Assembly: GCA_001771185.1 (NCBI GenBank)
Contig: METB01000001.1
Span: forward strand, 5,875-69,874
DNA from: a candidate division Kazan bacterium RIFCSPHIGHO2_01_FULL_44_14
Lineage (GTDB): Bacteria > Patescibacteriota > Kazan-3B-28
Direction of reading: 5' to 3'
DNA length: 64,000 bases
Translations under genes and position numbers: made by a program
The notes under the pieces: generated by a model
Told to the model about the DNA's origin: nothing
Seen by the model: the letters and a program-made list of their open reading frames with translations, nothing else
Database searches by the model: none
Shown: positions 7,988-55,650 of the stretch, piece by piece
Position numbering within the stretch: position 1 is the first letter of the stretch
Layout: every line of letters begins with the position of its first letter

Positions 7988-8938
7988 ATGAAACCAATGG
8001 AACAGACAGTCAGATACAACTTTGCCCGAGACGGATTTATCTATCTGTTGAGTTACGCCACCTTGGTGATTACTAGTGTGAGCGTAAACTTTTTGGCTAA
8101 GGCACTGGTGAATCGGTGGATACCGGATGCAGTTAGCAATGAATTCTTGGCGATGGATAGCGCGATTATCGGATTTCTAGCGGCAGCAGTAATCGCTCTG
8201 CCGGTGTTTGTCTATTTGAGTTATTTGGCCAATAAGATGCTGGGGAATAAGACCATGCGGGCGGATAGCGGAGTCCGCCATTGGTTGATTTACATCACGC
8301 TGGTGATAGTGATTTTGATTATTATTTGGCAGTTGGCGGTGTTGTTTTTCTCGTTTCTGAACGGGACATTAATACTCCAGTTTGGCGTCCACACGCTGAT
8401 TACCCTAATTATTTCTGGGTTGATTTTGTGGTATCAATGGTGGCATTTGAAGTTTTTTGCTGGCGAACCAAAAAAACTGGGGATTGGGTTCAAAGTGTTT
8501 GAATGGACAGTTTTATTGGTGGTGGTGGCAATCATTGGCTGGACATTTGCGACCATTGCCAGTCCAGCAGAACAGCGCGCCAAAAATTTGGATAGAATGC
8601 GAGTGGAACGGTTAACTAGTATTCGTGACGCAGTTCAGTCGTTTTACGGTTGGGAGAAGACCAGCGGTCATGCGCGGTTGCCAAAAACTTTGCAAGAACT
8701 GGAAAGTGATGCCAATGTCTACCTGATGGGGGATGCCCTGAAAGATCCAGCGACAAAAGCACAGTTTGATTATCGGATTATTACGGCTACCCAGTATGAG
8801 TTGTGTGCTACGTTTGATACCGAATTTAAAGAAGCCAATACAGCCACTAGACCGATAGCCGAGTCGGTGCCGGATAATCGAACCAAGCAGTTCTATCACG
8901 GCATTGGTCGGAGCTGTTTTGCGCTCTCAACGCAGTAA
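7988..8938 (+). CDS. Polytopic membrane protein with a C-terminal soluble domain, function unknown
   Basis: 316 aa: about 6 N-terminal TM helices, then a roughly 130-aa hydrophilic domain. Confidence 0.5.
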   Translation: MKPMEQTVRYNFARDGFIYLLSYATLVITSVSVNFLAKALVNRWIPDAVSNEFLAMDSAIIGFLAAAVIALPVFVYLSYLANKMLGNKTMRADSGVRHWLIYITLVIVILIIIWQLAVLFFSFLNGTLILQFGVHTLITLIISGLILWYQWWHLKFFAGEPKKLGIGFKVFEWTVLLVVVAIIGWTFATIASPAEQRAKNLDRMRVERLTSIRDAVQSFYGWEKTSGHARLPKTLQELESDANVYLMGDALKDPATKAQFDYRIITATQYELCATFDTEFKEANTATRPIAESVPDNRTKQFYHGIGRSCFALSTQ

Positions 8939-8978
8939 ACTGACGCGGGAGTGAAATTTGGAAGGGAAGAGTAACGGA

Positions 8979-9007
8979 TTGACAAATCTGATTTTTTCTG
9001 GTATAAT
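8979..9007 (+). promoter_or_regulatory. Consensus sigma70 promoter TTGACA-N17-TATAAT
   Basis: ttgaca aatctgattttttctgg tataat, 7 nt upstream of the ATG at 9014. Confidence 0.65.
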
Positions 9008-9013
9008 GGAAAG

Positions 9014-9799
9014 ATGGGTAAATTGACATGGTTAAAACCGTTGAAGATTAAAGGCCAGCGTCGAGGGAAAACGATGGTGCTGTTGTTGTCGGGCCTGATT
9101 CCGTATTCTAAGTCCTTTGGTCGAGCAGTTAACCAACTCACCAAGTTCGGAGATGTTTGGGAGATGAGTTATCCTGACTGCTATGCCAACGGCCAAGATT
9201 TACTGGTGGAAGTGACTCGTGAACTTCGCCAATTAAAGTACTCAAAACTAGTTTTGGTTGGATTATCGTTTGGCGGTACTCTAAGTTATTTATTGCTTAG
9301 ATATTGGCGCCGTCATCGAGTTCCATTTGAAACATTGGGAGTGGTAGCGGTCTCGACTCCATTTGGACCCGAAGATATTACTTGGCGGTCAAAAATTGAA
9401 TTGAATTTTGGGTACGAGATGGATCGACATGCTGATAAATTGTGGCGAACAGTGCTTCAGGTACTATATTGGCTGTGGGAAAACAATCATTGGTCAGATG
9501 GTCACCCTTATACAATCAAAAATTCACTCCAGAGAGTTTATAATGCGGTACGAGTGGGTTATCTATTGCGTCAAACTAGGTTAATCCGCAAAACTTTTCG
9601 GGCGATGCCAGCTTTGCTATTAAACACCGCTCGGGGGATAAAAGATCCGTTCGTGTTACGGACTAACGAAAATCATTTTAAGGAAATTTTCCCGCAGGGA
9701 CAAGTGGTCTATGGATTAACCAAGCATGCTTCCCTTAATAGTCAGCCGACTAGAGTTTATCGTCAACTAAATCGGTTTCTATCGACGGTTACCAGGTAA
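9014..9799 (+). CDS. Alpha/beta-hydrolase fold protein (GLSFGG nucleophile elbow)
   Basis: 261 aa. LVLVGLSFGG matches the G-x-S-x-G motif. Confidence 0.5.
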   Translation: MGKLTWLKPLKIKGQRRGKTMVLLLSGLIPYSKSFGRAVNQLTKFGDVWEMSYPDCYANGQDLLVEVTRELRQLKYSKLVLVGLSFGGTLSYLLLRYWRRHRVPFETLGVVAVSTPFGPEDITWRSKIELNFGYEMDRHADKLWRTVLQVLYWLWENNHWSDGHPYTIKNSLQRVYNAVRVGYLLRQTRLIRKTFRAMPALLLNTARGIKDPFVLRTNENHFKEIFPQGQVVYGLTKHASLNSQPTRVYRQLNRFLSTVTR

Positions 9800-9819
9800 G
9801 GTATAATTAGGGTGAGGGG

Positions 9820-10182
9820 GTGAGCACCTTGAAGGTAATATCTGCGGTCAGGAATTGTTTGCACTACTTGAACAATGGGGGCAAGAACGGGACGGTTTAT
9901 ATGCCAGTTGAGTTGCCTGACGGCAATCGGTTAGAAATGTGGGCCACATTTCAACATCATTCTAAATCCCACCAATCCCATCGGTTGATGGTGGTGAGGG
10001 GCGTGGATTTGAATTATGTTACAGATCGTCTCTTGCCGTTGATTCGCACTAATGGGCGTGATGTTCGAGTGGTTGAGGGTTGGGATCGATCCAGATTACT
10101 ATTTGAATTTGGGTTCAACTTTGATTTACTCGGACCCAATCAGCCCCTGGCTGATCCAACCTGCGTTCTAGTCCTTCAGTAA
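9820..10182 (+). CDS. Hypothetical protein
   Basis: 120 aa, downstream of the hydrolase, followed by a hairpin plus T-tract at about 10185-10225. Confidence 0.35.
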   Translation: MSTLKVISAVRNCLHYLNNGGKNGTVYMPVELPDGNRLEMWATFQHHSKSHQSHRLMVVRGVDLNYVTDRLLPLIRTNGRDVRVVEGWDRSRLLFEFGFNFDLLGPNQPLADPTCVLVLQ

Positions 10183-11957: not shown

Positions 11958-14774
11958 GTGGACGATAATAATCTCGGACAAATAGAATTGCGCGGGCTAG
12001 AGACGGAAATGCAGCAGTCGTATTTAAGTTACGCCATGAGCGTAATTGTGGCTCGGGCATTGCCGGATGTGCGTGATGGATTGAAACCGGTGCATCGGCG
12101 GATTTTGTATGCCATGAGTCGGGAAGGGTTAAGGCATACTGCCAAATATTCCAAATCCGCTGGGGTGGTTGGAGAAATGCTGAAAAAGTATCACCCACAT
12201 GGCGATATGGCGGTTTATGATGCGATGGTGCGGTTGGCCCAGCCCTGGAATATGCGGTATATGTTGGTAGATGGTCAGGGAAACTTTGGCTCAATTGATG
12301 GCGACTCGGCGGCCGCTTATCGGTATACCGAGGCCAGGTTGGCCGCAATTGCTGATGAAGTATTGGCCGATTTAGACAAGGAAACGGTTGAATTCATTCC
12401 CAACTTCGATGACACTACCAAGGAACCGACTGTATTGCCGACCAAGGTGCCTCAACTTTTAATGAACGGAACAGTTGGTATCGCCGTGGGTATGGCGACC
12501 AGTATCCCGCCACATAATTTGAGCGAGTTAATGGATGCAATTGCTCATCTGATTGTTAATCCCGAATCGGAAGTGGACGATTTAATGAAATATATTAAAG
12601 GTCCTGATTTTCCGACTGGTGGAATTATTTTTAATCCGAAAGATATCAAAGAGGCCTACGCGACTGGTCATGGCAAGATTGTGATGCGAGCGGTGGCCGA
12701 GATTGTCGAAGGCAAAAATGGTCATCAGATTATTGTCAGTGAGTTGCCTTATCAGGTGAATAAATCCAATCTAGTGGAGTCGATTGCTGATCTAGTTAAG
12801 AATAAGAAACTAGTTGGGATTGCTGATTTGCGTGACGAATCGGATCGCCGGGGAATTCGAATCGCGGTGGACTTAAAGCGCGACGCTTATCCGCGCAAAA
12901 TTTTGAATCAGTTGTTCAAGATGACACAGATGCAGTCGAGTTTCCATGTGAACTTGCTGGCGTTGGTGGACGGTATTCAGCCCCGGGTGTTAGACCTGCG
13001 GGCGACTTTGCAATATTTCATCGACCATCGGCGGATTGTCGTGACTCGGCGAACCCAGTTTGAATTAAAGAAGGCCGAAGAGCGAGCGCATATTTTGGAA
13101 GGGTTCATGATTGCTTTAAAAAATATTGATGAGGTGATTAAGACCATCAAGCAGTCAGCCACCAAAGAAGAGGCCCATGTCAATTTAAAAAAGAAGTTTA
13201 AGTTATCCGATTTACAGGCCTCGGCCATTTTGGAAATGCGATTGTCGGCCCTAGCTGGGTTAGAACGGAAAAAAGTCGAAGACGAGTATAAAGAAAAGCA
13301 ACAACTCATCAAGGATTTAAGGGCGTTGTTGGCTGACAAAAATAAGATTGATGAAGTAATTAAAGCGGAATGTTTGGAGATTAAGACCAAATATGGCGAT
13401 AAGCGTCGGACCCAAATTAGTGGGACAACGGTTGGCGATTTTACTGACATGGATTTGATTCCCAACGAAGAGGTGGTAGTAACAATGAGCATTGGCGGAT
13501 ATATTAAGCGTCAACAGATTGGCGAATTCCGAACTCAACGCCGAGGCGGTAAGGGAGTGATTGGAATGACTACCAAAGAAGAGGACCAAATTAGCAGTAT
13601 CCAAGTAGCTAAAAACCACGATGATATTCTATTCTTCACCAACCGCGGACGGGTGTTTAAACAGAAAGTATTTGAAGTGCCAAAGGCATCGCGGATTGCT
13701 CGGGGAGCAGCGGTGGTAAATATTATTCAGATTGCACCTGATGAATTAGTCACTTCAGTGATGACGCTATCTGATTTTGATGACAAAGATGACTTGGTGA
13801 TGTTTACCAAGCAGGGAGTAATTAAAAAGACCTCACTGGTGGCCTACGCCAATATTCGGAGTAACGGTTTGATTGCGATTAAGTTAGACGAAGGTGACGA
13901 ACTGACTTGGGTTAGGCGGTCTCGTCCTGGTGATGAAGTGATTATCGCGACGCGTTTAGGCCAGTCGATTCGGTTTAAAGAGACCGATGCCAGGTCGCTT
14001 GGACGATCGACTCGGGGAGTGCGGGCAATTAAATTGCGACCAAAAGACGAAGTGATTGGAGCGGATATTGCCAAACAGGGAGAGGTGATGGCTTTGCTGG
14101 TAATTTCCGAAAAAGGTTCTGGCAAACGGACATTGGTCTCACAGTACACTTTGCAACATCGTGGTGGGATTGGGATTAAGACCATGAATATTACTGACAA
14201 GACCGGTAAATTAATCGGAGCCAAATTGGTGGATAAAGGTCTTAAGAGTGACATGATTGTTACTTCGACTGAAGGCCAAATTATTCGAATGCCACTAAAG
14301 GGGGTGCCGACGCTTGGTCGAGCGACTCAAGGCGTCCGGTTGATGCGACTGAAGGGGAATGACAAGGTGGCTTCTTTCACGGTCTTAATTATGGAAGAAG
14401 CCGATGGTTCGTTGAGTAACCCGAATGAGGAATTAACCGAAAGTGAGCTGGCTAAATTGCCGGTGGTGGAAGTGATGGCGGAAGAAGAAAAACCAACCCC
14501 AGTAAAAGTGGCCAAGCCGGTTTCAGCGAAAATAACTAAACCATCCGCGTTGGTATCTAAATCTAAACCATCATTTGCCAAGCGAACATTAGCCAAGCCG
14601 GTTACTGCCAAGTCAGTTAGTCGAATGAAGGCCAAAGCAACTAAACCAGTAGCCAAGAAATCATTTACCGTGCGTAAATTGGCTAAACCGACCAAAATTA
14701 AATCATCTAGCCGAATCAAACATAAGACAGTTAAACAACCCGTTAAAAGTTTTACCCGCAGGAAACTGCGTTAG
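11958..14774 (+). CDS. gyrA: DNA gyrase subunit A with a lysine-rich (AKP/KPxxK) basic C-terminal tail
   Basis: [29 protein letters not shown], the catalytic Tyr region, and beta-pinwheel repeats. The last ~100 aa are K/A/P-rich. GTG start. Confidence 0.95.
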
Positions 14775-14858: not shown

Positions 14859-15266
14859 ATGACAATCTTAAACTTATTTAGACCGGATTATTACTTCGAC
14901 AATAACTTGGACTCAATCTTCTTTGGATTTTGGGTTTGGTTGGGTTTAGCGATTCTATTGATTTTGACCAGTGCGATTATGAATCTGAAATCGCGGCAAT
15001 GGAGTTATTTTTATAAACAAATCGTAGCGCGGAGTACTCAAATCGGGACCATTGTCGGATGGATTGGTTTGCTGTGGCTATTTTTCCGTTACGAAGGGAT
15101 TCCGTATTTTACTTGGCGGATTTGGCCTGCCTTATTGTTTGTTTATGTAATCGTTGCGGTTTGGTATCTGGTCAGATTTATTCGGGTAGATTATCCGGCT
15201 CGGCAGGCCAAACGAGGAAGTCGAGCGGATAAGGATGTGTATTTGAAGAGGGTGTTTAGGAAGTAG
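14859..15266 (+). CDS. Small integral membrane protein
   Basis: 135 aa with 3-4 TM helices. Confidence 0.45.
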   Translation: MTILNLFRPDYYFDNNLDSIFFGFWVWLGLAILLILTSAIMNLKSRQWSYFYKQIVARSTQIGTIVGWIGLLWLFFRYEGIPYFTWRIWPALLFVYVIVAVWYLVRFIRVDYPARQAKRGSRADKDVYLKRVFRK

Positions 15267-15698
15267 TTTTTGTTTTCTTTTTCAAGCGTTCTCACCGCGC
15301 TTGACCCGTTAGTATTTCTTCTCGTCATTGCGAGCTGTAGGCGTGGCAATCTAATCCTCCCCTTAAGATAAGGGGAGGATTAGGAAGGGTTATTGACTGA
15401 TTATATTCTTAACTCCCCCTTACTCCTCTTACCTTAAGAGGGGTGACCACAACTATTCATCACAAATCCTTCCGTGGTTCTACTATCTAGTAGAACAAAG
15501 GAGGACCTTTAACTGATTAATAGACAAGTCCTCATCCTAGGGCCAAAAAAAGAAGCAGGAAGCCAACTTGGTTGTTAAATTCTATGTGTAGTGGAAGGAA
15601 ACGGCCGTCTATTTATACAACACGGGGGAAGAAGTGGAATAGATTGATGAATCTGGCGTCTAAATTCGAGATTCTAAATCCCATATTCTAGATTTTAC

Positions 15699-15726
15699 TT
15701 GACTGGGAGCAGGTTTCCTATATACT
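15699..15726 (+). promoter_or_regulatory. Sigma70 promoter TTGACT-N16-TATACT with an AGGAGG RBS downstream
   Basis: ttgact gggagcaggtttccta tatact. RBS at 15741-15746, ATG at 15758. Confidence 0.5.
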
Positions 15727-15757
15727 GGAGTTAGCTCATTAGGAGGTGTATATTGAA

Positions 15758-16381
15758 ATGTCGAAAACGGACCAGCTTGATGATGTCCAAAGAAAGTTGC
15801 AGGATGCTTTAGATAAACTGCATCATTGTCAGGTTGATTTGTATTTTTCAAGAGATCGGATATTCCAAGTTTTAAGGGGTTACGAGACAAAACATTTAAT
15901 GGGTGTAATTGCTCTCGATGCAACGAATCGGTGTCAGCATGAGCAGGATGAAGCCCATATTCAGGAGGTAGAGGACCTAATTGTCTCGTTAAGAGAAGGA
16001 CGACTTGGTCGTCCTCTGGTAAAGGGAGCTTGTATGGATGTAAGGTATCTTTTACCAGAAAAGTATCCCAACTTGGATCGGCTTGTCTGGGAAGATGACT
16101 GGGAAAAGGTTTCTCGCTGTGTGTCAGACGTTGGCGAGAATGTGAGATGGATTCTGGCCATCCAATGGGAGAACGAGAAGGGAAAGAAGGGGCGGGTATC
16201 TACTAGGCGGTCGGTTAAGATAATCACGCCCAAAGGATTCAGCCCGTTTCATACCTCGTACTCGGAGGAAATATTAGTAGACGCTGGTCGTTTTACCCGT
16301 ACTCTACAAGACCAGGTGCTAGAGATTCTATTGGATGCCATGATGAGGATAGTTGACTCAGACGAGGAGTGGTTTCGCTGA
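15758..16381 (+). CDS. Orphan hypothetical protein (GC-elevated cassette 1a)
   Basis: About 207 aa, no recognisable domain, with its own promoter and terminator. Its composition differs from neighbouring genes. Confidence 0.45.
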   Translation: MSKTDQLDDVQRKLQDALDKLHHCQVDLYFSRDRIFQVLRGYETKHLMGVIALDATNRCQHEQDEAHIQEVEDLIVSLREGRLGRPLVKGACMDVRYLLPEKYPNLDRLVWEDDWEKVSRCVSDVGENVRWILAIQWENEKGKKGRVSTRRSVKIITPKGFSPFHTSYSEEILVDAGRFTRTLQDQVLEILLDAMMRIVDSDEEWFR

Positions 16382-16400
16382 TTTCGGTCAGTTTCATTTG

Positions 16401-16426
16401 TGCCCCCGCAAGGGGGCTTTTTCTTG
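16401..16426 (+). terminator. Rho-independent terminator (gcccccgcaagggggc + TTTTTCTT)
   Basis: Hairpin plus T-tract immediately after the ORF ending at 16381. Confidence 0.7.
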
Positions 16427-16508
16427 CTCTGATAGTGGTTTTAATGCTATCTTAGAGCTGACTTGTATTGTCGGGGTTACCCCGAAATTTGAAATTTAGG
16501 AGCAAATC

Positions 16509-17423
16509 ATGAGTCAGAACCCTCTAACCCAGGGCGTATGTAGCGGCAGCGCGCCACTTTACTACATTCTCGAGGTGAGCAAGCTGTATTGTCGGGTCTA
16601 CTCGGCCATTAGTGTAACGATGACCCGTTCTCTATGGCAGATTATCCAGCCGTACCTTGAATCTCCCGCTTCGCTCTTGAGGGGCTGGGAGCGGAACGGC
16701 CTGCCACCTGATGAGTGGGTGGGGCCTAACCTAGCTCCACATGCGAGATGGGGGATGGGCGGAGCCATTGTGAGTATGAGACAGCGCGATCCCAAGAGGA
16801 TGATCGAATTCAGGATCGCTTTGCCTGCCAACGCGGTCGGATGTAGGGATTTGATAGAGACATATGCCAGCTTAGATGTGCTGTTGCGGTGTATGCACCG
16901 CGCGGCTTGTCAGGCGGAATCAATTAATCTGTCTTACAGCCAAAACAATACTCAACTGATCGCGGTTGAGTCGTTGGTGAACGGGGCTAAGCTAGCGGTC
17001 TCCCCTAAATTGATCGACTGGATGACGAAGTCGAGTTTATATTATTGGGGCAGTGCGCTCGAGCATGCCTGCCAGACAATGGCAGAGGTCAGCGATCACT
17101 TAGGGCTGACGGGCTCTTTCTATAAGTACCCGTCGTTGGTTGGCCGGTTGGAGGAGCCACCAAAGGTATCTTTGGAAGGTGAGAATGGGCGTCAACTGCA
17201 CTTTACGATGGGACAGCTTCACCTCTTTCCCCGTAAGGCGCCTACCCAGCGCGACTGCGGATATAAATTGGTTCAAGGTATAGGCAGCGATTCCCTGATT
17301 CCATATCCCCATCGCGTATCGACTGGCTACGATACTCCCGAGATGATAATGGCGACCAATCTCGTCTTTCTCTGCGGGCTAATCCAGATGGCGCATTCCG
17401 CTCTGCACGAGATGTTGCCCTAA
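16509..17423 (+). CDS. Orphan hypothetical protein (GC-elevated cassette 1b)
   Basis: 304 aa with several Cys residues and no recognisable domain. Visibly GC-richer than the flanking genes. Confidence 0.45.
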   Translation: MSQNPLTQGVCSGSAPLYYILEVSKLYCRVYSAISVTMTRSLWQIIQPYLESPASLLRGWERNGLPPDEWVGPNLAPHARWGMGGAIVSMRQRDPKRMIEFRIALPANAVGCRDLIETYASLDVLLRCMHRAACQAESINLSYSQNNTQLIAVESLVNGAKLAVSPKLIDWMTKSSLYYWGSALEHACQTMAEVSDHLGLTGSFYKYPSLVGRLEEPPKVSLEGENGRQLHFTMGQLHLFPRKAPTQRDCGYKLVQGIGSDSLIPYPHRVSTGYDTPEMIMATNLVFLCGLIQMAHSALHEMLP

Positions 17424-17474
17424 ACGACATTGATAGTGCGATGGCCATCCACAAACAACCCAGCATTTAATTTG

Positions 17475-17510
17475 CCCTCTTGGTCGATCAACCAAGAGGG
17501 CTTTTTCTTG
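17475..17510 (+). terminator. Rho-independent terminator (ccctcttggtcgatcaaccaagaggg + CTTTTTCTT)
   Basis: A 10-bp stem followed by a T-tract. Confidence 0.7.
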
Positions 17511-17537
17511 ACTTGAGGGTAGTTCATGGGTTATACT
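17508..17537 (+). promoter_or_regulatory. Promoter TTGACT-N18-TATACT upstream of rpsA
   Basis: ttgact tgagggtagttcatgggt tatact. Confidence 0.45.
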
Positions 17538-17617
17538 CCCCCATATAGCACTATTTGATAAGGTCATACTCTTAAACCGTTGCCTGAAGCATGAAAGTGC
17601 TGTCCAGGTGAGTTTTT

Positions 17618-19244: not shown

Positions 19245-21011
19245 ATGACAGACGAGAAAAAACAATTAGTTCTACCTGGTGTATTAACGGTCAAGGAATT
19301 GGCTGGATTGATGGATATACCAGTGACAACCGTCATTCGTCAGTTATTGGGTAGCGGAGTGTTGGCGACTATTAATGATAATTTAGATTTCGAAACCGCT
19401 GCGGTAGTAGCCGACGATTTGGGTTTCACTGCTACTTTGGAGCAATCGGAAAGTGAATTATCAGCCGATACCAATCAATACATAAGTGACGCCGAAGGTG
19501 AGCCGCGAGCGCCGATTGTGACTGTGATGGGGCATGTTGATCACGGCAAAACCTCACTGCTGGATTACATCAGGAAAACCAAAGTGGTGGAAGGGGAGTC
19601 GGGCGGAATTACTCAACATATGGGAGCGTATCAAGTTGACTATAAAGGTCGTCGGATTACTTTTTTGGATACTCCCGGGCATGAGGCCTTTTCAACCATT
19701 CGGGCTCAAGGGGCGAAAGTGACGGATGTGGCGATTTTGGTAGTGGCGGCTGATGACGGGATTAAACCCCAGACGATCGAGGCAATTGAATTGGCCCGAG
19801 CCGCCGGGGTACCGTTGGTGGTGGCAATTACCAAAATTGATAAACCCGAAGCCAATGTGATGCGAGTGGAGCAGGAATTAGCAGCCCACAATATCGTGAC
19901 GGAGAAGTGGGGCGGTAAAGATGTGGTAATTGGTGTCTCTGGTAAAACCGGTCAGGGAGTAGATGAATTGTTGGAGTTAGTTTTACTCACGGCTGACTTG
20001 CAAGAACTTAAAGCGCCAGTTGAAGGACCGGGCGAAGGAGTAATCATTGAATCGAAACATGATCCCAAAGTGGGAGCATTGGCGACTTTACTGGTGCAGC
20101 GCGGAACTTTGCGGGTAGGCGATTCGTTTGTGGCGGGAAATCATTTTGGCAAAATCAAAGCGATGGAGGATTTTACGGGTAAACGGATTAAACAGGCCGG
20201 TCCATCCCAACCAGTCCGGGTGACCGGGTTTACGGCTGCACCGAGTGCTGGTGAACGATTGATGACGGTGGCGAGTGATAAAGTAGCCCATGAAATTATT
20301 GCTAAATTAAATAAGCGGGCAACTACTCGTCAATTTTCAGCTCGAACTTCAGATTTAACTCGATTGACCTCGCAAATTCGGTTGGCTCGGTTGCATCACA
20401 TCAATATTGTGTTAAAAGCCGATGTCCAGGGCTCACTGGAGGCGATTAAGCAACAACTCGACAAGATTAAAACCGACAAGGGCCAAATCCGAATTGTGGC
20501 CGAAGGGCTAGGTAATATTACTGAATCAGATGTAATGTCAGCCGCCGGGGAAAATGGGTTTGTGGTTGGGTTCAAAGTGGCAGTCACGCCATCGGCTCGT
20601 CGAACTGCCAAGAAAGATGACATTAAAATCCTGACTTACGATATTATTTATGAATTGACGGACGATTTGACTAGGATTTTGTTGGATTCAATCGGGCCGG
20701 AGAAAATTGAGACCACGGTTGGCCGGGCGACCGTGTTGAAGATTTTTCGAGACGCCAGAAGCGAAAAGATTGTTGGGATGAAAGTTATTTCCGGCAAAGT
20801 TCAACGTGGCAATATTGTTAGATTCTTTGATGAAAACAAAGAACTGGTAGGGGAGGGGGAAGTTAAATTAATCAAGCGAGTAGCCGAAGAAGTGACAGAA
20901 GCCAACGCTGGTGATGATTTTGGTTTCCAAATTACGACTCATGCTAAAATTACCGAAGGAAACGTAGCCGAGTTTATTCGAGTCGATTACAAAAAAGCGG
21001 GTTTGAAGTGA
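19245..21011 (+). CDS. infB: Translation initiation factor IF-2
   Basis: G-domain motifs GHVDHGKTSLLD, DTPGH and TKID(NKxD). The ATG lies within an ATGACAGAC repeat motif. Confidence 0.95.
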   Translation: MTDEKKQLVLPGVLTVKELAGLMDIPVTTVIRQLLGSGVLATINDNLDFETAAVVADDLGFTATLEQSESELSADTNQYISDAEGEPRAPIVTVMGHVDHGKTSLLDYIRKTKVVEGESGGITQHMGAYQVDYKGRRITFLDTPGHEAFSTIRAQGAKVTDVAILVVAADDGIKPQTIEAIELARAAGVPLVVAITKIDKPEANVMRVEQELAAHNIVTEKWGGKDVVIGVSGKTGQGVDELLELVLLTADLQELKAPVEGPGEGVIIESKHDPKVGALATLLVQRGTLRVGDSFVAGNHFGKIKAMEDFTGKRIKQAGPSQPVRVTGFTAAPSAGERLMTVASDKVAHEIIAKLNKRATTRQFSARTSDLTRLTSQIRLARLHHINIVLKADVQGSLEAIKQQLDKIKTDKGQIRIVAEGLGNITESDVMSAAGENGFVVGFKVAVTPSARRTAKKDDIKILTYDIIYELTDDLTRILLDSIGPEKIETTVGRATVLKIFRDARSEKIVGMKVISGKVQRGNIVRFFDENKELVGEGEVKLIKRVAEEVTEANAGDDFGFQITTHAKITEGNVAEFIRVDYKKAGLK

Positions 21012-22310: not shown

Positions 22311-22440
22311 TTATTGATGCCCCGAAGAACTGCTTGCCCATCGAAGCCCTGGCGTAGTTGGGAGGGGATACAGTTTTTCTTGTCATTGCGAGTTTACCTA
22401 CCGGAGGTTGGCCGTAGGCGTGGCAATCTATCTTTCTTTA

Positions 22441-22665
22441 TGTCATTCTGAATTTTCTGCCAACTGGCGGATCAGAATCTATTTAATTTCTTTCTGCCAC
22501 CATTTTACTCACCCAATATGCTTTTGCAACGCCACATTGCGTTGCATCAATGCCCGCTTTGTCTTGTCAAAGCTGGGTAAACCGCTGACCAACGTTCTCG
22601 GGTTTATTCATTGGCTAAATCCTCTTTCTGCTTTCCGCCTACTGGCGGAGGGGCAAACTCCTCCC
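22441..22665. repeat. About 225-bp dispersed repeat element, copy 1 (second copy at 46121-46340)
   Basis: The two copies share long near-identical blocks (ccaactggcggatcagaatctatttaatttc..., cttgtcaaagc, attcattggctaaat). Sub-modules ccgccaactggcgg and gccaccccatttg recur elsewhere. Confidence 0.65.
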
Positions 22666-22845
22666 TTTAGTCGTTAAACATACGGCCCTGTCTGCCGATA
22701 GGCAGGTCCACCCACCGAGATTTAGTTCAGTTCAGCCTGCCTGCCGGTAGGCAGGAATAACCCTCGTCCTAGGGCCAATTATAAACGAATCTCTATACTA
22801 GACACTTTTGCCTTGCTCGATGTTATCTGGTTTACTGAATATGTT

Positions 22846-23286
22846 ATGACACAAGACCACGAAGTATCTCTATGGACAGTAGAGGCGGCACAAATTGCTG
22901 CAAAAAATGGCCAACTCCGTCAATGGGTTATTGATTTTCTCGATAGCCCGGCGGGAAAAAACTCTAAGTTTGCTGAAGACCTTCGTAAAAATCCTAGTTG
23001 GGTTTTTGACGCTCCAATTAAATTTCCACTTCAAGAGCTTACTCCTATTAGTGGACAGCCAGAAGATAATCGCCTATTTCACGATTCGCATTGGGACGAT
23101 AATGTATCAGCTATGGTTGAGGCCATTGCTAGTGGTTGGTGTCCTCCTCCACTGATTGTGACGAGTAATCTAGGTATTCCCAATGGCATCTCTGATGGTA
23201 ATCATCGTTGGTCAGCCCTGCGAGAAACTGGTCATACCGAGTATTGGACTATCTTCTACTATCCAAATCCATCCAAGCCATCCTAA
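22846..23286 (+). CDS. ParB/sulfiredoxin-like nuclease-domain protein
   Basis: ISDGNHRWSALRETGH resembles the ParB-like nuclease DGxHR motif. The start was chosen at the ATG at 22846. Confidence 0.45.
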   Translation: MTQDHEVSLWTVEAAQIAAKNGQLRQWVIDFLDSPAGKNSKFAEDLRKNPSWVFDAPIKFPLQELTPISGQPEDNRLFHDSHWDDNVSAMVEAIASGWCPPPLIVTSNLGIPNGISDGNHRWSALRETGHTEYWTIFYYPNPSKPS

Positions 23287-23355
23287 TTTGCTCGATGGGT
23301 TCTACTAAGATATTCCCTGAGCGGAGTCGAAGGGGTACCATAACTTTTCACTATT

Positions 23356-23589
23356 CACTTTTAACTTTTAACTGTCCCCATATCTGATAATCAGCTCCCA
23401 GAGCCACTTTCTGCTTGACAGGATTCTGGTTCAGGAGTATACTCAGGGGGAATTATTGGTCGTTGAAAACTTGACGAAAAGCGCGACGTGACAGACCTGA
23501 TGGTCGGTCGCGAAAAGATACGTTGTTCTGGTAAGCACCTCTTCCTGGTCACTAAGAGGTGCATTGTTCTGAGATCCTAGGAGAGAGAA
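23356..23589 (+). promoter_or_regulatory. Duplicated promoter (TTGACA 23415-23420, N17, TATACT 23438-23443) plus a conserved ~150-nt leader, copy A
   Basis: Near-identical to 37606-37823 through the promoter, and about 75% identical through the leader (conserved core agacctgatggtcggtcgc-aaaagata). Confidence 0.55.
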
Positions 23590-23784
23590 ATGAAAAGATT
23601 TTGGAGTGTTATTATTGCGATTGTTGCTTATACGACGCTATTCGGTTACTGGTTGGGAATTGTCTACTTGGGTGGATTTTCCCATAATCTTATCCTGGCG
23701 AGTGTCATTGCGATGATCGTAACGATAGTTCATTTTGGCATTCTGTGGATGGCCTGTCGTAGTCCTCGTAACAAATCCATTTAA
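23590..23784 (+). CDS. Small two-TM membrane protein
   Basis: 64 aa, strongly hydrophobic, driven by the duplicated promoter/leader. Confidence 0.4.
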   Translation: MKRFWSVIIAIVAYTTLFGYWLGIVYLGGFSHNLILASVIAMIVTIVHFGILWMACRSPRNKSI

Positions 23785-24015
23785 TAGGATTGATTCCGAC
23801 TCTCTGGAGGAGGGGTCGACACATGCTCTAACTGCACTTTTAAAATCGCGGTTGAGGCGTGCCCATTGCCTCGGAGCCGAAAGGTAAAAATGGGAGTGAT
23901 GGGCCGACCATGGTATGAACTGGCGACACGAAAAATTAAAGTAAAGTTCCAAATTATGTGTCTTGACGGATTAGCTCATTTTCAAACTCGCGCTATCTGC
24001 CGAGCATTGTTCATT

Positions 24016-24046
24016 AAAAGGGCGCCTGTAAGGGCGCCCTTTCTCA
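24016..24046. terminator. Bidirectional hairpin terminator (aaaagggcgcc tgta agggcgcccttt)
   Basis: A perfect 9-bp GC stem with flanking A- and T-tracts, between convergent genes. Confidence 0.6.
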
Positions 24047-24222
24047 TACTCAAATTTTATATAAATGTCATCCTCGGGGCCACTCTTGGTGGAGCCCGGG
24101 GATCCAGAACAGAAAAAGGTAGTCCCTCCGTTCGTCGGGAAAACAAATATTCAATATCTTAAAAAAGCGGATATTATCCGCTACCAACATTTTTAATTTT
24201 TCATTTGGAATTTTTAATTGGG

Positions 24223-27500: not shown

Positions 27501-28001
27501 ATGAGGACTTCAGGTGGAGCATATCGTTGGCTGATGAGGTTGATGTACGCGACGGATCCTAGATGGGAAGTGAAGGTGGACCGATCGCTCGATCACCGAT
27601 TCGGTAGTCGCCAACCAATTCGATCGCTACGAAGTTTCAGATATCTATGCTCAAAGGGGTACTTAACTCATCTGGAAGGAGATAGATATCAACTAACCGA
27701 TTTAGCGCGGATTAATCTCTTGCAGGAAATGGTTAAGCGGCGTAAGCCGGACGGCAAGTGGCGTGTGGTGGTATTCGACATCCCGGAAAAATTAAGACAA
27801 AATCGCAATGTCTTTCGGCACCATTTGATCAATTTGGGATTTAGGATGAAACAACAGAGTGTGTGGGTATCGCCTCTACCGTGTGAGGATTTGGTGGCAT
27901 TAGTGGTGAAGTACCACGGTTTAGGACAGTTTGTGGAGTTAATAGTAGGAAAAGATGTGCCCCTTAGGACGACGGCCGTCGTCAGAGTGGGCAGGGAATA
28001 G
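27501..28001 (+). CDS. wHTH + Cas2-like domain protein (PaaX-like architecture), solo
   Basis: C-terminal WRVVVFDIPEKLRQNRNVFRHHLINLGFRMKQQSVW matches the Cas2 beta1-Asp/SVF motif and is paralogous to 3198-3440. An N-terminal segment (GYLTHLEGDRYQLTDLAR) resembles a winged helix. It sits where rimM usually lies. Confidence 0.5.
   Translation: MRTSGGAYRWLMRLMYATDPRWEVKVDRSLDHRFGSRQPIRSLRSFRYLCSKGYLTHLEGDRYQLTDLARINLLQEMVKRRKPDGKWRVVVFDIPEKLRQNRNVFRHHLINLGFRMKQQSVWVSPLPCEDLVALVVKYHGLGQFVELIVGKDVPLRTTAVVRVGRE
27966..27998. repeat. Second copy of the gacgacggccgtcgtcagagtgggcagg palindrome, at the 3' end of the Cas2-like ORF
   Basis: Shares a 24-nt identical core with 27436-27475 and encodes the ORF C-terminus (TTAVVRVGRE). 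Confidence 0.6.
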
Positions 28002-28032: not shown

Positions 28033-28761
28033 ATGAAATATACGGTTATTACAATTTTTCCGCAGTTAATTGAAGATTATTTCCAGGAAGGGATTTTGTC
28101 TCGAGCTTTGCGGAACAAGCAGGTGGGATTGAAAACGATTAATCCGCGGAAATTTACCAAAGACCGACACCAAACGGTGGATGATATACCGTATGGCGGG
28201 GGAGCGGGACTCGTTATGAAGATTGAGCCGTTAGTAAAAGCGATTAAATCTGCAGCTAGGTCTCGTTTTCGTCATTCCGAACTTGTTTCGGAATCTAGTT
28301 CTAAAACGGAGAAGATCCTGAAACAAGTTCAGGATGACGGGAAAAAAGTAAGAATTATTTTGCTCGACCCAAGAGGCAAAAGATTTACGCAGAAAGAGGC
28401 GAAACGGTTAACGAAATATGATGAGTTGATTTTTGTGTGTGGAAGGTATGAGGGGGTGGATGAAAGAATTAAATATTACATCGACGAGAAGTTGTCGATC
28501 GGGGATTTTGTGCTAATGGGCGGGGAGTTGGGGGCGCTGACCATAATGGAATCCGTGGCGCGGTTAATCCCGGGGGTTCTGCACCATCCCGAGTCGGCAA
28601 AGTTTGAGAGTTTTTCTTTTGGGGATAATTTGGAACACCCGCAATACACTCGGCCGGAGGTATTCGAGGGGCATAAGGTGCCGAAAGTACTCTTGTCGGG
28701 ACATCATGGGAAGGTGGAGGAGTGGCGAGTAAAAAATGGTAAGAATAAGAGAGGAATCTAA
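28033..28761 (+). CDS. trmD: tRNA (guanine37-N1)-methyltransferase; carries an in-frame repeat insertion at about 28266-28340
   Basis: SPOUT-fold TrmD motifs (YGGGAGLVM, CGRYEGVDERI, GGEL). About 22 extra residues between the conserved blocks are encoded by two hairpin modules (ttccgaa-cttgt-ttcggaa and tcctgaa-acaag-ttcagga). Confidence 0.9.
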   Translation: MKYTVITIFPQLIEDYFQEGILSRALRNKQVGLKTINPRKFTKDRHQTVDDIPYGGGAGLVMKIEPLVKAIKSAARSRFRHSELVSESSSKTEKILKQVQDDGKKVRIILLDPRGKRFTQKEAKRLTKYDELIFVCGRYEGVDERIKYYIDEKLSIGDFVLMGGELGALTIMESVARLIPGVLHHPESAKFESFSFGDNLEHPQYTRPEVFEGHKVPKVLLSGHHGKVEEWRVKNGKNKRGI

Positions 28762-29009
28762 TCAATCTCACCAATCTGAACAATCTGTACCAATCTTTTG
28801 GTTAGATCCCTCGGCTTCGCTCGGGATGACAGAAAATTGGATAAATTGGTTAGATTCGCCCAGCAGGGCTAAAAGCTTGACTGGGGGCGATGATTCAGAT
28901 AGGGTGAGGGCGTTAGGTGGGCCTGTGATTTTCAGGGATATCAAACCACCAGCACCTTAACGACTAGGCAAAAATAGTTAGCCGGAAAGGTGAGTAAAAG
29001 GAGACTAAG

Positions 29010-29738
29010 ATGAGTGAAGGAAAACTCTTAGCCGCCTGTAGGAAGATAGAGAACATCTTACATGAGCTTAGGAAACAAGAGTGTGATTCAGAGGGACATG
29101 AGGGACATGGCCAAAGAGCTGCCGAGTTTCTGAAGCAAATCAGATCACTCGATGACGAGCGTGCTCTCGGCAGGTTTCTCCAGCGTGGGAAACACCTTTT
29201 AGAGTTGATGGTAAGGGAACGGATACCTTCTGTGGAGGAATTTCGGAACCTTCTTGACGACTCTTGTCCTCAAATTATTAATTGTGATGCGAAACCAATA
29301 GTCCCGAGTGGACTAAAAATATGGGAGCACACAAAGCAAGGGATGGTGGAGTGGCGTCCGGAGAGATTTCAGTTTTATCGCTCTCCTTTGCAGGAGGGTT
29401 GTTGGCAACTCGGAAAAGGTTGTTCTGGCTCGGTTCTCCTTCAAGAGCTACGGGATAAAAACAAGCAGGTGTGCAACGCCTGTTTGGCAGATTGGTTACT
29501 CGGCAATCCTCGGTTTGTGTTGGGCGATAAGTGGCGTGAAGGTCACTGTAGCCTAGTTAGGGTAATTTTCTGGGGGACAATATTCTCTGAAGTGAGCGGT
29601 AAAAAACGCTATGTCAAACATCTGAGCTTTGGTGGGCCGTTTGGGCTACACACGGGTGTAATTGAACTTGACCAAGTTCGTTTCACCGGTGGAACTAATT
29701 TCGACCAGGACTCTCCTGCATTGATTATGGTTGGTTAG
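29010..29738 (+). CDS. Orphan hypothetical protein (GC-elevated cassette 2), Cys-rich
   Basis: 242 aa with no recognisable domain, followed by a strong terminator. Confidence 0.45.
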   Translation: MSEGKLLAACRKIENILHELRKQECDSEGHEGHGQRAAEFLKQIRSLDDERALGRFLQRGKHLLELMVRERIPSVEEFRNLLDDSCPQIINCDAKPIVPSGLKIWEHTKQGMVEWRPERFQFYRSPLQEGCWQLGKGCSGSVLLQELRDKNKQVCNACLADWLLGNPRFVLGDKWREGHCSLVRVIFWGTIFSEVSGKKRYVKHLSFGGPFGLHTGVIELDQVRFTGGTNFDQDSPALIMVG

Positions 29739-29753
29739 TTAAGTGTTATCCAA

Positions 29754-29783
29754 GGGCGGGTCTTCGGACCCGCCCTTTTTTCG
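29754..29783 (+). terminator. Rho-independent terminator gggcgggtcttcggacccgccc + TTTTTT
   Basis: A 7-bp GC stem with a T6 tract. Confidence 0.75.
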
Positions 29784-37104: not shown

Positions 37105-37605
37105 TTTTTTGTTGCCCCGAGGTACCGAGGGGCTACCTTGTTTTGCGAAGCCCTGCGTAGCTCGTTAGAGCGTAGAAGGGTCATCCTTAATTTTTGGTTT
37201 CCCGACGAACGGAGGGACTTCATTGTTTTTTTCAAGGGTCTACGCCACCCTTGATGGGCGGTTACTTTCCTCTTGGGGAAAGTAACCAAAGCCGTCTCCG
37301 CAGTCGCCCTCTTTATTCATCACAACTAATTCTCTTACTGCTCTCGCCAAACTTTCCCGGCAAGCCGGGATTCGAACAGTTGGCTTCGCAACGGAAATTA
37401 GTTGGATTCAGAACACTCGGGCTCCAATGCTCGATTAAGAGGGGATAGTAACTACTCGATGGGTACCAATGAGATTGATACCCTGCCTACCGGCAGGCAG
37501 GCCCGAAGAACTGCTTGCCCATCGAAGCCCTGGCGTAGTTGGGAGGGGATACCATAACTTTTCATCGCAGATCCTTCCGTAGCTTTAGGCGGAGGAGGAC
37601 TTATC

Positions 37606-37823
37606 ACTTTTAACTTTTAACTGTCCCCATATCTGCTAATCAGCTCCCAGAGCCACTTTCTGCTTGACAGGATTCTGGTTCAGGAGTATACTCAAGAGGA
37701 ATTTGGACGTTGAAAATTTGTTGGAAACAAGCGCGGCAGACCTGATGGTCGGTCGCAAAAAGATATTCTGGGCGCCTTCCCCTAGGAGGTAGTATTGTTA
37801 TTACCCCGAGGAGGGGGAAAGAA
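37606..37823 (+). promoter_or_regulatory. Duplicated promoter (TTGACA 37664-37669, N17, TATACT 37687-37692) plus conserved leader, copy B
   Basis: See 23356-23589: the same promoter and leader core (agacctgatggtcggtcgcaaaaagata) sits in front of an unrelated gene. Confidence 0.55.
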
Positions 37824-38699
37824 ATGGTTATTCAGCAGGTTTTGACATCTGTTGGTTTCTTGCTTGTCGCAAGCTGGCTCGTGGGAATGATTTTTGCCTT
37901 TATGGCACTGTATTTTGTCGGCTGTGCTACCGACTTTACAGCGATTCCAGCTGGCAAGAAGCTTAGTTTCTTCCTTCAGACAAGCCTAGGCGTCGGCTTA
38001 TTGTTAGCGGCGCTGGTTGTCTCTTTGAAATTCGCTTTGGGGATCGTTGAAACACAGGTCTTCATGACCTTTGGTTGTATTCTATTCACTTCCCTGGTTT
38101 CCCGGGCGGTGATAAAAAAGTTGAAGCAGTCGAAGGAGGAGAAAGAGACGACTTCCGAAGAAACTCCAAAAACGAAAAGGGAGATGAGAATTGTTGAGAA
38201 TCTTTTGTTCGTGCTCCCGGAGTACAACGAAAGGGCCGTGGCTCTTTCTCTTCGTGATGACTTTTGTGGGAGCACAACCACAACAATCACTCCATCGGAA
38301 GCTGACGAAGTTGGAAAGCCTGGACCTCGGCGTTTGCTGTTGGTCGAGTTTCAAGAGAATCTTAATTTTCATCAGATTCTAGAAACTCAAATGCCAAACA
38401 ATACACGTGCCGCGACCTTAAGGGAAATTATGGTCGCAGCAAAACAGTTCCGGCTTGCGGGTCGGCGGCCTCTGGTGTGTCTTATTAGACAGGGAGAGAA
38501 AGGGTACGGCGGTGGGACCGTTCGCTTCCTTTCCAGTGTAGACTCATTCGGAGGTTATACCACCGGTGATCGGGGCAAGGGGAAATTTCTTCCCGAATAC
38601 CCCGGTAACATGTGGCTCACAGGAGCAAAAGTTGCATTAATAGCGGAGGAGGGGTATGAATCGCAAGAATCATCACCCACTCCAGTCGTCACCGCTTAA
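37824..38699 (+). CDS. Orphan membrane protein (4 TM helices + ~180-aa soluble domain), GC-elevated cassette 3
   Basis: 291 aa with no recognisable domain, driven by the duplicated promoter/leader. Confidence 0.45.
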   Translation: MVIQQVLTSVGFLLVASWLVGMIFAFMALYFVGCATDFTAIPAGKKLSFFLQTSLGVGLLLAALVVSLKFALGIVETQVFMTFGCILFTSLVSRAVIKKLKQSKEEKETTSEETPKTKREMRIVENLLFVLPEYNERAVALSLRDDFCGSTTTTITPSEADEVGKPGPRRLLLVEFQENLNFHQILETQMPNNTRAATLREIMVAAKQFRLAGRRPLVCLIRQGEKGYGGGTVRFLSSVDSFGGYTTGDRGKGKFLPEYPGNMWLTGAKVALIAEEGYESQESSPTPVVTA

Positions 38700-39305
38700 G
38701 AAGCTTAGCAAAAACACGTAACTATTATTTTTCTCAAAGAGGGGAAGAAATGAGCGGTTTTATCTAGGTACGCATAAAAAACTGCGGTCTAGGGGTCGGA
38801 TCGGGATCAGCCCGGACGATTGTTAGATACGTAGCAAAATGCGACAAATGGGCGGGCAGGACTCCGCCGTAGGGTGTTTCTCCCCTGACACCAATCCGTA
38901 ATGACTGATCGCAAGGTCTAAATCGGAAAGTAGAGGATGATTTAAGTGGTTCGGGCAATTTCGGACAATCGGCGCGCGTTATGACCGCGCCACGTCAGCC
39001 CAACCACTGCACTTTTTAAAAGGCGTTCTGCTTAGCAGGACGCCTTTTCTCGTGCCCAAATGATAGGGTAAGGTAGTTCCAAGTAATTTTGAATGATGAA
39101 TTTTGAATTTTGAGTGAATGACCTAATATCTTAATTTTGGAACATTCAGTCATTGGGATTTGATTAGAAATTTGAAATTAGAAATTTAGGTAGCCCCTCA
39201 GTTCTTCGGGGCAACAAAATAATATCACTCCACTTACCCGCTAACCTGCTTTCTCTACGGGGTTGAATAAAACCCGGTTTTCAGGTACTATTGGTGCGTT
39301 AAGAT

Positions 39306-42760: not shown

Positions 42761-43617
42761 GTTAACCGTAATTTTTGGTTTCCCGAGGCACCGCCTGCCC
42801 ATCGAAGCCTTGGCGTAGTTGGGAGGGACTACCTTGATTTCTTTTGCCACCCCATCCGTCGGGATAATTTCTAATTTCTAATTTCTAATCAAATCCCAAT
42901 GACTGAATGTTTCAAAATTAAGATATTAAATCATTCACTCAATCCGTCAGCCCCAAAAGAAAGGGGGGTCTTAGACCCTGACGGACAAAATTACTTGCTG
43001 GGATACCATAACTTTTCACTATCCCTACAGGGTTGACGGGAATTAAATGGTGTGGTAACATAAAAATCGTTGTATCAGAGCGGTTCTGACACCTGACGGG
43101 ACGCTGTTATTTTGGCTGGTGAGTGGGACTCGCAGGGTTCCCCCGGCAAAAACCAAGAACCTCCGCTAAAAACTGGAATTTAAGCAAGATTCCAAGTTCA
43201 GGAGATAAGCTCTCGTTTAGTGAAAGGTGTACCGTACACGATACCTGTCTATGTTCATTGAGGTACGGGAGAGAGGAGGATATGCCGTCCAATGTTGTGG
43301 CGGAAATCAAATCCCTCCCAATTGTTCTGCTGCCAAAAGTAGCATTGCTCTGTTCTTCTCTTTTTTTGTCTCTCTTTTTTGTCCGTAAGGGCCTTGCGGG
43401 AGATCGAGACAATCGCCAGTAGTCCTGCGTTGGGGACATGGATGATTGTATGGACGCAGCGATGCTAACCTGGCTAGCGGATGATGGGGAGCAACTTCCC
43501 CTAACGCGCGCTTTTGGTCGCACCCGTTCTAATTGATGAAGCGAGTAGCGGAGCCAGGGTGGAGGGATGGCCACGAATTTCCGCCAGTCATCCTCTCGGC
43601 CAAAGCGAACAAGTAAG

Positions 43618-43651
43618 AGCCTCGGATTAAAAACCGGGGCTCCTTTTTATT
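43618..43651 (+). terminator. Rho-independent terminator gagcctcgg-attaaaaa-ccggggctc + CTTTTTATT
   Basis: It ends a ~600-nt stretch (43040-43650) that has no credible ORF. Confidence 0.6.
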
Positions 43652-44057
43652 CATACAATTCAGATTGGTGAGATGGGTGAGAAAATGTTATAAAAAGAAA
43701 CGGCCGTCTATTTATAAAACATATTTTCTCTATAGGGTTGACACCGAATTCTGCTGTGGTAATCTGGTCGCGTTCCCTGCTGTTGGACTGTGAGTTTTGC
43801 CCTCCCCCCAAAGGAATCCCATAGGTCCGATATGCGGGTGAATTGTTCTTGAACCGGAAGCCGGCCATAATCTCTCAACTATAGTGCCAGATGTCTGGAA
43901 GCGATAGCATCATGCTGTGACCCAGAGGCATTTTATCAGTTGAAGGCCGCCATTGTCTGCTGAAGATATGGATGGCAAAATGACCGGTATAAATTAAGGG
44001 TCCCCATTGCGCAAGCTGGGGACCTGTTTTTATGTTCGGTCAGGCATAATAGAGGAG

Positions 44058-47210: not shown

Positions 47211-47248
47211 CCACATCTTCCCGGTCATCAAAGTAGTTCCTTTAATTG

Positions 47249-55619: not shown

Positions 55620-55650
55620 AGGTCTGATAACGAGATTGTTTCTTTTGCTT

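Follow-up and report, generated by a model that had tools for sequence, protein, structure and literature searches.

Orphan genes among the core genes of a candidate division Kazan chromosome, including a lineage-specific insert upstream of rpsA

How do genes without recognisable relatives come to lie among the housekeeping genes of a very small bacterial chromosome? The question is raised by a stretch of 64,000 nucleotides (hereafter the window) of METB01000001.1, a contig of ~700 kb from the candidate division Kazan bacterium RIFCSPHIGHO2_01_FULL_44_14, a tiny groundwater organism of the Candidate Phyla Radiation (CPR) with a genome of ~0.7 Mb. The window holds a run of housekeeping genes (recR, cysS, gyrA, rpsA, infB, rbfA, rnc, nusB, rpmF, rpsP, trmD, uvrB, dprA, topA, uvrA, uvrC, ligA, dgkA and gatCAB), and between them lie orphan genes that NCBI labels as hypothetical proteins (A3K24_00130, here called orphan 1, and A3K24_00135 and onward). 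A first-pass annotation of the same DNA had described the orphans as G+C-rich cassettes with promoters and terminators of their own, and had proposed either a cassette-acquisition mechanism or a family of accessory proteins. The explanation that we consider probable is that they are independently gained, lineage-specific accessory transcription units, similar to the morons of phages, which occupy intergenic hot spots of a streamlined Kazan chromosome. The argument rests chiefly on one insert, which carries orphan 1 (15758-16381) and orphan 2 (16509-17423) and separates a gene for a membrane protein of 135 amino acids (aa) from rpsA. No description of these loci was found in the literature searched.

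The insert upstream of rpsA

The focal insert (15267-17507) is a block of 2.24 kb that extends from the stop codon of the 135-aa membrane-protein gene (14859-15266, + strand), a conserved left anchor outside the insert, to the -35 element of the rpsA promoter. The order gyrA, 135-aa gene, rpsA is kept in relatives of four other lineages, namely L007 (Kazan genome GW2011_GWA1_50_15) together with its metagenome twin L021, whose S1 proteins are 82% identical to that of the window, and L008, L009 and L010/L022 (71-79%). The 135-aa protein is 70-89% identical at the amino acid level in L007, L008 and a further relative, L033, and 43-48% identical in L009 and L010, and its gene is found directly upstream of rpsA wherever rpsA was seen (L007-L010, L021, L022). 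None of the relatives from these four lineages has the insert: their spacer between the 135-aa gene and rpsA measures about 67-125 bp, compared with 2351 bp here, and in L007 only 6 bp lie between the stop codon of the 135-aa gene and a TTGACT-N-TATACT promoter plus leader (CATATAGCACT.TTTGATAAGGTCATA). A metagenome scan with S1 yielded two Kazan relatives, neither of them nearer than those already in hand. The insert is real and lineage-specific, and by parsimony over relatives from four other lineages it is a gain in this one.

At its right border the insert leaves the rpsA promoter (TTGACT-18-TATACT) and the conserved 5' leader behind it whole (17508-17617, + strand). The same promoter and leader also precede rpsA in L007 and L008, both of which lack the insert; the TTGACT-N18-TATACT site at 17508 is the ancestral promoter of rpsA, kept in relatives, and belongs to no cassette. 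The leader is retained across Kazan species (17538-17617 in the window, 9926-10000 in L007, about 497-575 in L008) and may be an autoregulatory element of S1, although it has no match in Rfam, which at its gathering threshold recognised only a tRNA in the window and gave chance-level hairpin matches in the insert.

The left part of the insert (15267-15698, about 430 bp) is non-coding and consists of palindromic modules, with a G+C content (GC) of 41% over 15267-15757. These comprise a hairpin CAAGCG..CGCTTG at 15283-15303, read from the sequence as a diverged copy of a module whose canonical form, CAAGGGTCTACGCCACCCTTG, is present at 37233 and in L007, L017, L019 and L033; a GTCATTGCGAGC..GGCAATC module at 15324-15349; and a hairpin with a 15-bp stem at 15351-15383. 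Hairpin folding in this part reaches a free energy (dG) of -25 kcal/mol (z=-4.9). The sequence CTTGAC, which occurs at both borders of the insert, was considered as a target-site duplication and rejected, since the left copy belongs to the hairpin module found throughout Kazan and the right one is the rpsA -35 element.

Three variant contigs (L020, L035 and L036), 99.0-99.4% identical to the window, were used as a population sample. Both arms of the 15-bp-stem hairpin carry paired AT-to-GC changes in L036 (15354-15355 and 15379-15380) that keep the palindrome, which suggests either that the structure is under selection or that the changes were copied from a different copy of the repeat.

Orphan 2 (16509-17423, + strand) encodes 304 aa behind a ribosome-binding site AGGAG (16498-16502), and is followed by a predicted intrinsic terminator (17474-17501, + strand; dG -21.1 kcal/mol, z=-5.7), which forms the right end of the insert and whose T-tract meets the -35 element of rpsA. 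With a GC of 53.7%, the maximum of the whole window, and 62.6% at third codon positions (GC3), 17 points over the core, it stands well apart from 33 core genes (z=+4.7 and z=+5.3, respectively). A word-indexed search of 5.8e9 proteins returned only self-matches, and four distant relatives, P0124-P0127, of 293-329 aa and 25-39% identity, came to light only in a full HMMER scan of 1.84e9 representatives (phmmer E of 3e-42, 5e-26 and 1e-19 for P0124-P0126, and 3e-4 for P0127). The family aligns over its full length with 18 invariant columns and the motifs W..P...HA+WG.GGA, EFR, DHLG and FLCGLI.LA, and its profile matches nothing in Pfam or PDB. Judged by this alignment, orphan 2 truly belongs to an uncharacterised and very rare protein family whose members have about 300 aa. 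The homologues lie on short metagenome contigs with a GC of 49-53%, amid wholly different neighbours and each with a hairpin of its own behind it. Because the composition of orphan 2 fits the contigs of these relatives and not its present host, horizontal acquisition is likely. The idea that orphan 1 regularly accompanies the orphan 2 family was rejected, the genes upstream of the orphan 2 homologues being unrelated.

The population sample points to relaxed constraint on orphan 2. Five nonsynonymous changes and one synonymous change were found in L020, and six nonsynonymous (a nonsense allele included) and one synonymous in L036, against none and eight, and none and five, respectively, in rpsA, and none and one in infB of L036; in L035 only contig-end mismatches were seen in orphan 2 and were ignored, and rpsA is not covered by that contig. 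When polymorphic sites are pooled, the ratio of nonsynonymous to synonymous is 8 to 1 in orphan 2, counting the nonsense allele, and 0 to 8 in rpsA (Fisher p=4e-4). The nonsense allele (TGG to TAG at 16717, W70*; L036, 2x coverage) strikes a tryptophan that is invariant in the family, and shortened gene calls consistent with this stop are present in three assemblies. Orphan 2 thus looks dispensable and partly decaying. In the same variant, the Lys/Ala-rich C-terminal extension of GyrA (14511-14554, codons 852-866) has five nonsynonymous changes and one synonymous change, and therefore the GyrA tail also evolves freely.

Orphan 1 (15758-16381, + strand; 207 aa) has a predicted sigma-70-like promoter, TTGACT-16-TATACT (15699-15726, + strand), which matches the -35 and -10 hexamers at 10 of 12 positions, as well as a ribosome-binding site AGGAGG (15741-15746) and a putative intrinsic terminator consisting of GCCCCCGCAAGGGGGC then TTTTTCTT (16402-16417, + strand; dG -14.5 kcal/mol). 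Its GC of 45.7% (z=0.1) is like that of the core, and the word-indexed search of 5.8e9 proteins gave self-matches only. Variant L035 differs from the window in orphan 1 by 11 nonsynonymous and no synonymous changes, and 10 of these fall in codons 15-61 (15800-15938), a patch of 141 bp without a silent change on a background that is 99% identical. The flanks are nearly identical in this variant (no change in the 135-aa gene, one in the 491-bp spacer), and the excess over one change in 713 flanking neutral sites is significant (p=3e-4). No changes in orphan 1 were found in L036, and L020 does not cover it. The local excess of replacements could reflect diversifying selection, a short tract of recombination or hypermutation, and orphan 1 is possibly a conflict or interaction protein. 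To go by these variants, both focal genes escape the purifying selection seen on their neighbours. Single-sequence AlphaFold2 predictions of the two proteins were of very low confidence (pLDDT, the predicted local distance difference test, of 33 and 40) and the models are unusable. In 1000 shuffles, no open reading frame (ORF) reached the 304 or 207 aa of the focal insert, and the ORF lengths of the other inserts were attained 0-10 times per 1000.

Orphan units elsewhere in the window

The remaining orphans likewise have core genes on either side whose synteny holds in relatives, and repeat modules around them, as the first-pass annotation had reported. The unit at 28877-29777 (+ strand) consists of a candidate promoter TTGACT-17-TAGGGT, a conserved leader stem (28905-28960), an orphan of 242 aa with 9 Cys (29010-29738) and a terminator (29752-29777). 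This orphan has a homologue at the same position in L007, with 28.6% identity between flanking proteins that are 57-87% identical, and on this comparison it is an old positional gene that evolves fast; its GC is unremarkable (z=1.1). The unit at 37599-39048 (+ strand) begins with a promoter-leader module, module A (37599-37765, with TTGACA-17-TATACT at 37664), followed by an orphan of 291 aa (37824-38699), whose hydrophobic N-terminal segments resemble membrane helices when the sequence is read by eye, and a terminator hairpin (39018-39048). Between uvrC and a conserved sigma-like gene, the unit at 46394-47276 (+ strand) has a weak promoter TTGACC-17-TAGGAT, a leader belonging to a second module, module B (46422-46480), an orphan of 235 aa (46503-47210) with the second-highest GC of the orphans (51.3%, z=+3.3; GC3 58%), and a terminator (47249-47276). 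Two orphans share the interval 54639-55679 (+ strand), at 54639-55136, with an uncertain start, and 55263-55619; the terminator behind them (55651-55679) adjoins the gatC promoter at 55686, just as that of orphan 2 adjoins the rpsA promoter (17501/17508). All of the ORFs listed by the first-pass annotation are present, with the correction that 54660 has no start codon and the first ORF of this pair begins at 54639.

An additional insert, absent from the first-pass annotation, was found at 22311-24222 (+ strand). It measures 1.9 kb and contains an orphan at 22813-23286, a copy of module A (23350-23520) and an ORF of 64 aa (23590-23784), and it is missing from L007, in which the DHH gene abuts rnc. 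The protein of 22813-23286 (146-157 aa) has a DGNHRW motif and is labelled ParB/sulfiredoxin-like by UniRef, below the thresholds of Pfam and NCBIfam.

The junctions from topA to gatC were compared with L017, L032 and the contig of P0008. Orphans 37824 and 46503 are without counterparts in these three, as are orphans 54639 and 55263. At the topA-uvrA junction, between uvrC and the sigma-like gene and between ligA and gatC, relatives carry other lineage-specific ORFs instead. Where the 235-aa orphan follows uvrC here, L017 has an ORF of 92 aa, L032 a polyprenyl synthase and two ORFs, and the P0008 contig ORFs of 129 and 92 aa; between ligA and gatC, other small ORFs are found in L017 and in the P0008 contig, so that content differs genome by genome. 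Overall, six of the seven orphans listed initially are absent from the relatives sampled, the exception being 29010-29738 with its positional homologue, and therefore they are gained or fast-turnover accessory genes and not part of an ancestral core.

The sequence properties attributed to the orphans at first sight held to differing degrees. None has a match in Pfam, PHROGs, PADLOC, NCBIfam or PDB sequence profiles, in keeping with the statement that they lack recognisable domains, and they are indeed Cys-rich (0.8-3.7% against a core mean of 0.7%, p=0.001) and atypical in codon usage. Composition is not uniform, but the claimed GC of 53-55% applies to orphan 2 only, the others having 45.7 (orphan 1), 47.5, 48.4, 51.3, 50.1 and 49.0% in a window of 45.6% (core mean 45.5%, sd 1.8, 33 core genes); as a group the orphans are GC-richer than the core (Mann-Whitney p=2e-4), by a modest margin that had been overstated. 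Strong hairpins with T-tracts were confirmed after the orphans (16402, 17474, 29752, 39018, 47249, 55651). A near-consensus promoter for each unit was claimed as well, and stands for two orphans only, orphan 1 (15699) and 37824 (37664), with 10-11 of 12 matches; predicted promoters are weak or unclear for orphan 2, 46503, 54639 and 55263. The sites at 47914 and 55686 sit just upstream of the sigma-like gene and of gatC, not of orphans, and sites as good or better precede core genes (47914, 59455, 26292). Promoter-like sites are no commoner in the window than in shuffled sequence. Nor do the orphans form a protein family: pairwise BLASTP and hhalign profile comparison found no similarity among them, and the histories of orphan 2, 29010-29738 and orphan 1 differ. 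Effector, defence or symbiosis functions for them are speculation.

Promoter-leader modules and palindromic repeats

Two modules that combine a promoter with a leader are each used more than once. The copies of module A (~170 nt; 23350-23520 and 37599-37765) share ~90% identity over 166 nt, with a core of 105 nt at 95%, and contain a near-consensus TTGACA-17-TATACT and a conserved leader of ~80 nt, in front of the unrelated ORFs 23590-23784 and 37824-38699; the module was not found in the relatives fetched. Module B is present at 28877-28960, at 46394-46480 and in L007 at 19416-19510, where it precedes orphans 29010 and 46503 and the L007 homologue of 29010, respectively. It has a long-range stem of 12 bp (GGCGTTAGGTGG...CCACCAGCAYC) and a downstream hairpin that reads CACCTT/AAGGTG in one copy and CATCTT/AAGATG in the other; its leader is better conserved than the protein downstream, and no match to it was found in Rfam.

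The palindromic modules, of which CAAGGGTCTACGCCACCCTTG is an example, are common to Kazan species and occur genome-wide, also far from orphans; further copies of repeat modules were seen at 27958-27993 and 2858-2893 of the window and at 18659-18682 of L007. In two close relatives, L019 and L033, similarity to the window breaks off at repeat modules, a pattern that fits recombination in repeat-rich spacers or chimeric metagenome assembly at repeats. The L019 contig matches the 3' half of uvrC at 94.7% identity and parts from the window ~86 bp past the uvrC stop codon (L019 1588-4077 against window 46107 onward), running on through repeat modules into different genes, with a DNA polymerase III delta'-like gene on the opposite strand. 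The breakpoint marks a rearrangement mediated by repeats in this close relative, or else the contig is a chimera of the assembly.

Palindromic modules were also observed in frame within core genes, at 28267-28344 in trmD (28033-28761) and at 44139-44150 and 45491-45526 in uvrC, similar to the in-frame insertion of Rickettsia palindromic elements into genes. The Pfam domains of trmD and ligA are each split into two stretches, and UvrC has 699 aa here compared with 589-668 aa in relatives. Between uvrA and uvrC, ~1.2 kb (42761-44006) are rich in repeats and hold no convincing gene, a minus-strand ORF of 155 aa (43107-43574) having a poor coding score; the same is true of positions 8816-10000 of relative L017 (~70-80% amino acid identity). 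The window also contains two paralogous genes for TraG/VirD4/HerA-like ATPases (49111-52014 and 59857-62262), with ~39% identity when both are compared against L017. Each follows a small conserved gene, and a nucleotide self-comparison of the window found a similar stretch of 290 nt in the two (50956-51245 and 61585-61874).

Origin and significance of the orphan units

Morons are defined as genes with their own promoter and terminator, deviant in composition and located between two genes that relatives carry side by side (PMC3594210). Like the phage morons of the HK97/HK022 type, which are single genes with their own promoter and intrinsic terminator, the focal insert and other orphans are extra DNA between genes adjacent in relatives; their terminators are convincing in all units, and their predicted promoters are good in orphan 1 and 37824 only. 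The deviant GC of morons is shared by orphan 2 and 46503-47210 and not by orphan 1 or 29010. Morons are dispensable and horizontally acquired (PMC3594210), which is likely of orphan 2 as well, and they reside in phages and prophages, whereas the orphans described here are found in a bacterial chromosome, among gyrA, rpsA, infB, trmD, uvrABC, topA, ligA and gatCAB, and neither phage genes nor phage relatives of the orphans were detected in scans of PHROGs, phage records and IMG/VR. Hot spots of horizontal transfer between core genes have been described in bacteria (Oliveira et al. 2017, PMC5635113), and the Kazan intervals are similar in that the same pairs of core genes (topA and uvrA, uvrC and the sigma-like gene, ligA and gatC, the 135-aa gene and rpsA) enclose accessory genes that vary from genome to genome. 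They differ in that the Kazan islets are very small (1-2 genes) and belong to a genome of ~0.7 Mb, with dense palindromic modules and reused promoter-leader modules. Bacterial ORFans typically have a higher AT content than the genome around them. The orphans are similar to them in having few or no homologues, short length, atypical codons, fast evolution and a place in variable regions, and differ as a group in being GC-richer instead.

In the mechanism that we propose, DNA would enter the cell, probably by natural competence, and would recombine into spacers rich in palindromic modules, and the only insertions to survive would be those that leave the core promoter downstream of them intact and insulated. 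The units would then be transcribed on their own, some from promoter-leader modules common to unrelated orphans, and once gained would either diversify fast (orphan 1) or decay (orphan 2). No dedicated capture machinery would take part; gain would be unassisted and repeated, in spacers that tolerate it. Several points weigh against independent gain of accessory units as a general account. The gene at 29010-29738 was already present in the ancestor of two or more Kazan species, so that not every unit can be called a gain, and a horizontal origin of orphan 1 appears unsupported, given its native GC and no detected homologues. No empty-site allele of the focal insert was seen within the population. 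The steps of entry and recombination are ones that we infer, and expression of the units is predicted from sequence signals. Each junction was compared in 2-5 relatives, the closest of which (~85% amino acid identity) spans the first two junctions only; the variant contigs are few, one of them (L036) at 2x coverage; and the sensitive homology search, the full HMMER scan, covers orphan 2 only.

The orphans might instead be functionless relics, that is, foreign or scrambled DNA in tolerant spacers with ORFs that decay neutrally. This we regard as unlikely, in spite of the prevalence of nonsynonymous changes in both focal genes, the nonsense allele of orphan 2 (about three assemblies), which hits a residue invariant in the family, the very low AlphaFold confidence and the atypical codon usage, because the ORFs are intact at 207-304 aa, far beyond chance length, and have ribosome-binding sites and terminators. 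In addition, full-length conservation of the orphan 2 family at 25-39% identity makes it a real protein elsewhere, the changes in orphan 1 are clustered in 47 codons with none silent, unlike uniform decay, and the 29010 gene has held its place in more than one species. That gene, with its diverged positional homologue in L007, speaks for the converse account, in which the window preserves an old state and relatives have repeatedly lost ancestral genes, CPR genomes being prone to reduction. Such loss is improbable as an explanation of the whole: four other lineages, with 71-82% S1 identity, all have the tight junction and the same rpsA promoter, the GC3 of orphan 2 is far over that of the core and its homologues occur only in unrelated contexts, and the same junctions hold different genes in different relatives. 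If selfishness drove the spread, the orphans would be free-standing elements such as homing endonuclease genes, which propagate by cutting empty sites. Free-standing homing endonuclease genes of phages are located between conserved genes and have their own expression signals, as the orphans do between highly conserved genes, and the ParB/sulfiredoxin-like label in the neighbouring insert could be read in the same way; but no nuclease domain was detected in any orphan, the orphans are mutually unrelated, and the homologues of orphan 2 lie in unrelated contexts and not at the same target, which leaves this account very improbable.

Dedicated site-specific capture, of the integron type or another, was the mechanism first suggested for these genes, and we find it scarcely credible. 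Integron cassettes and the orphans are alike in being compact, mostly single-gene, hairpin-bounded and variably present. Integron cassettes form a tandem promoterless array with attC sites and IntI, whereas the orphan units are dispersed over at least five loci, with expression signals of their own and without attC, IntI or array. Pairs of attC core sites (RYYYAAC...GTTRRRY) number 9 in the window against 11.5 +/- 4.9 in shuffles and all lie inside core genes, so that no R''/R' pairs are found near the orphans, and no integrase, recombinase, transposase or reverse transcriptase is encoded by the ORFs of the window. The hairpins after the orphans have G+C stems with T-tracts and are for this reason terminators and not attC sites; the other hairpins are repeat modules of genome-wide distribution. 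Hardly any more can be said for orphan 1 as the target of a diversity-generating retroelement (DGR) or other targeted hypermutation, although DGRs are reported to be common in CPR bacteria, and the ten nonsynonymous changes of its patch include three that create AAY codons. Within the window there is neither a reverse transcriptase nor a second copy of 15780-15960 to act as template repeat, the variable patch is N-terminal and not C-terminal, and several of the differences exchange C and G, with A in neither allele. A broader proposal is decidedly doubtful: the orphans would be co-regulated, fast-evolving conflict proteins of an episymbiotic CPR bacterium, serving in phage defence or host interaction and plugged in behind portable modules A (23350, 37599) and B (28877, 46394, L007 19416), and orphan 1 at least (codons 15-61) would be subject to targeted hypermutation or to intense diversifying selection in an otherwise 99% identical population.

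Independent gain in tolerant spacers requires no new mechanism, and the general significance of the locus is modest for that reason: it is a well-resolved yet ordinary example of how accessory genes turn over in a CPR genome, with no new capture system or mechanism. It does provide leads, among them the unannotated family of orphan 2, the hypervariable patch of orphan 1, the two promoter-leader modules that can be reused, and the repeats that lie within core ORFs. CPR genomes of very small size tend to be portrayed as reduced and static, and to this picture the locus is a counterexample resolved to the base pair, in which new self-contained genes slot directly upstream of the promoters of essential genes (rpsA, gatC) without disturbing those promoters, and then diversify or die within a single population.

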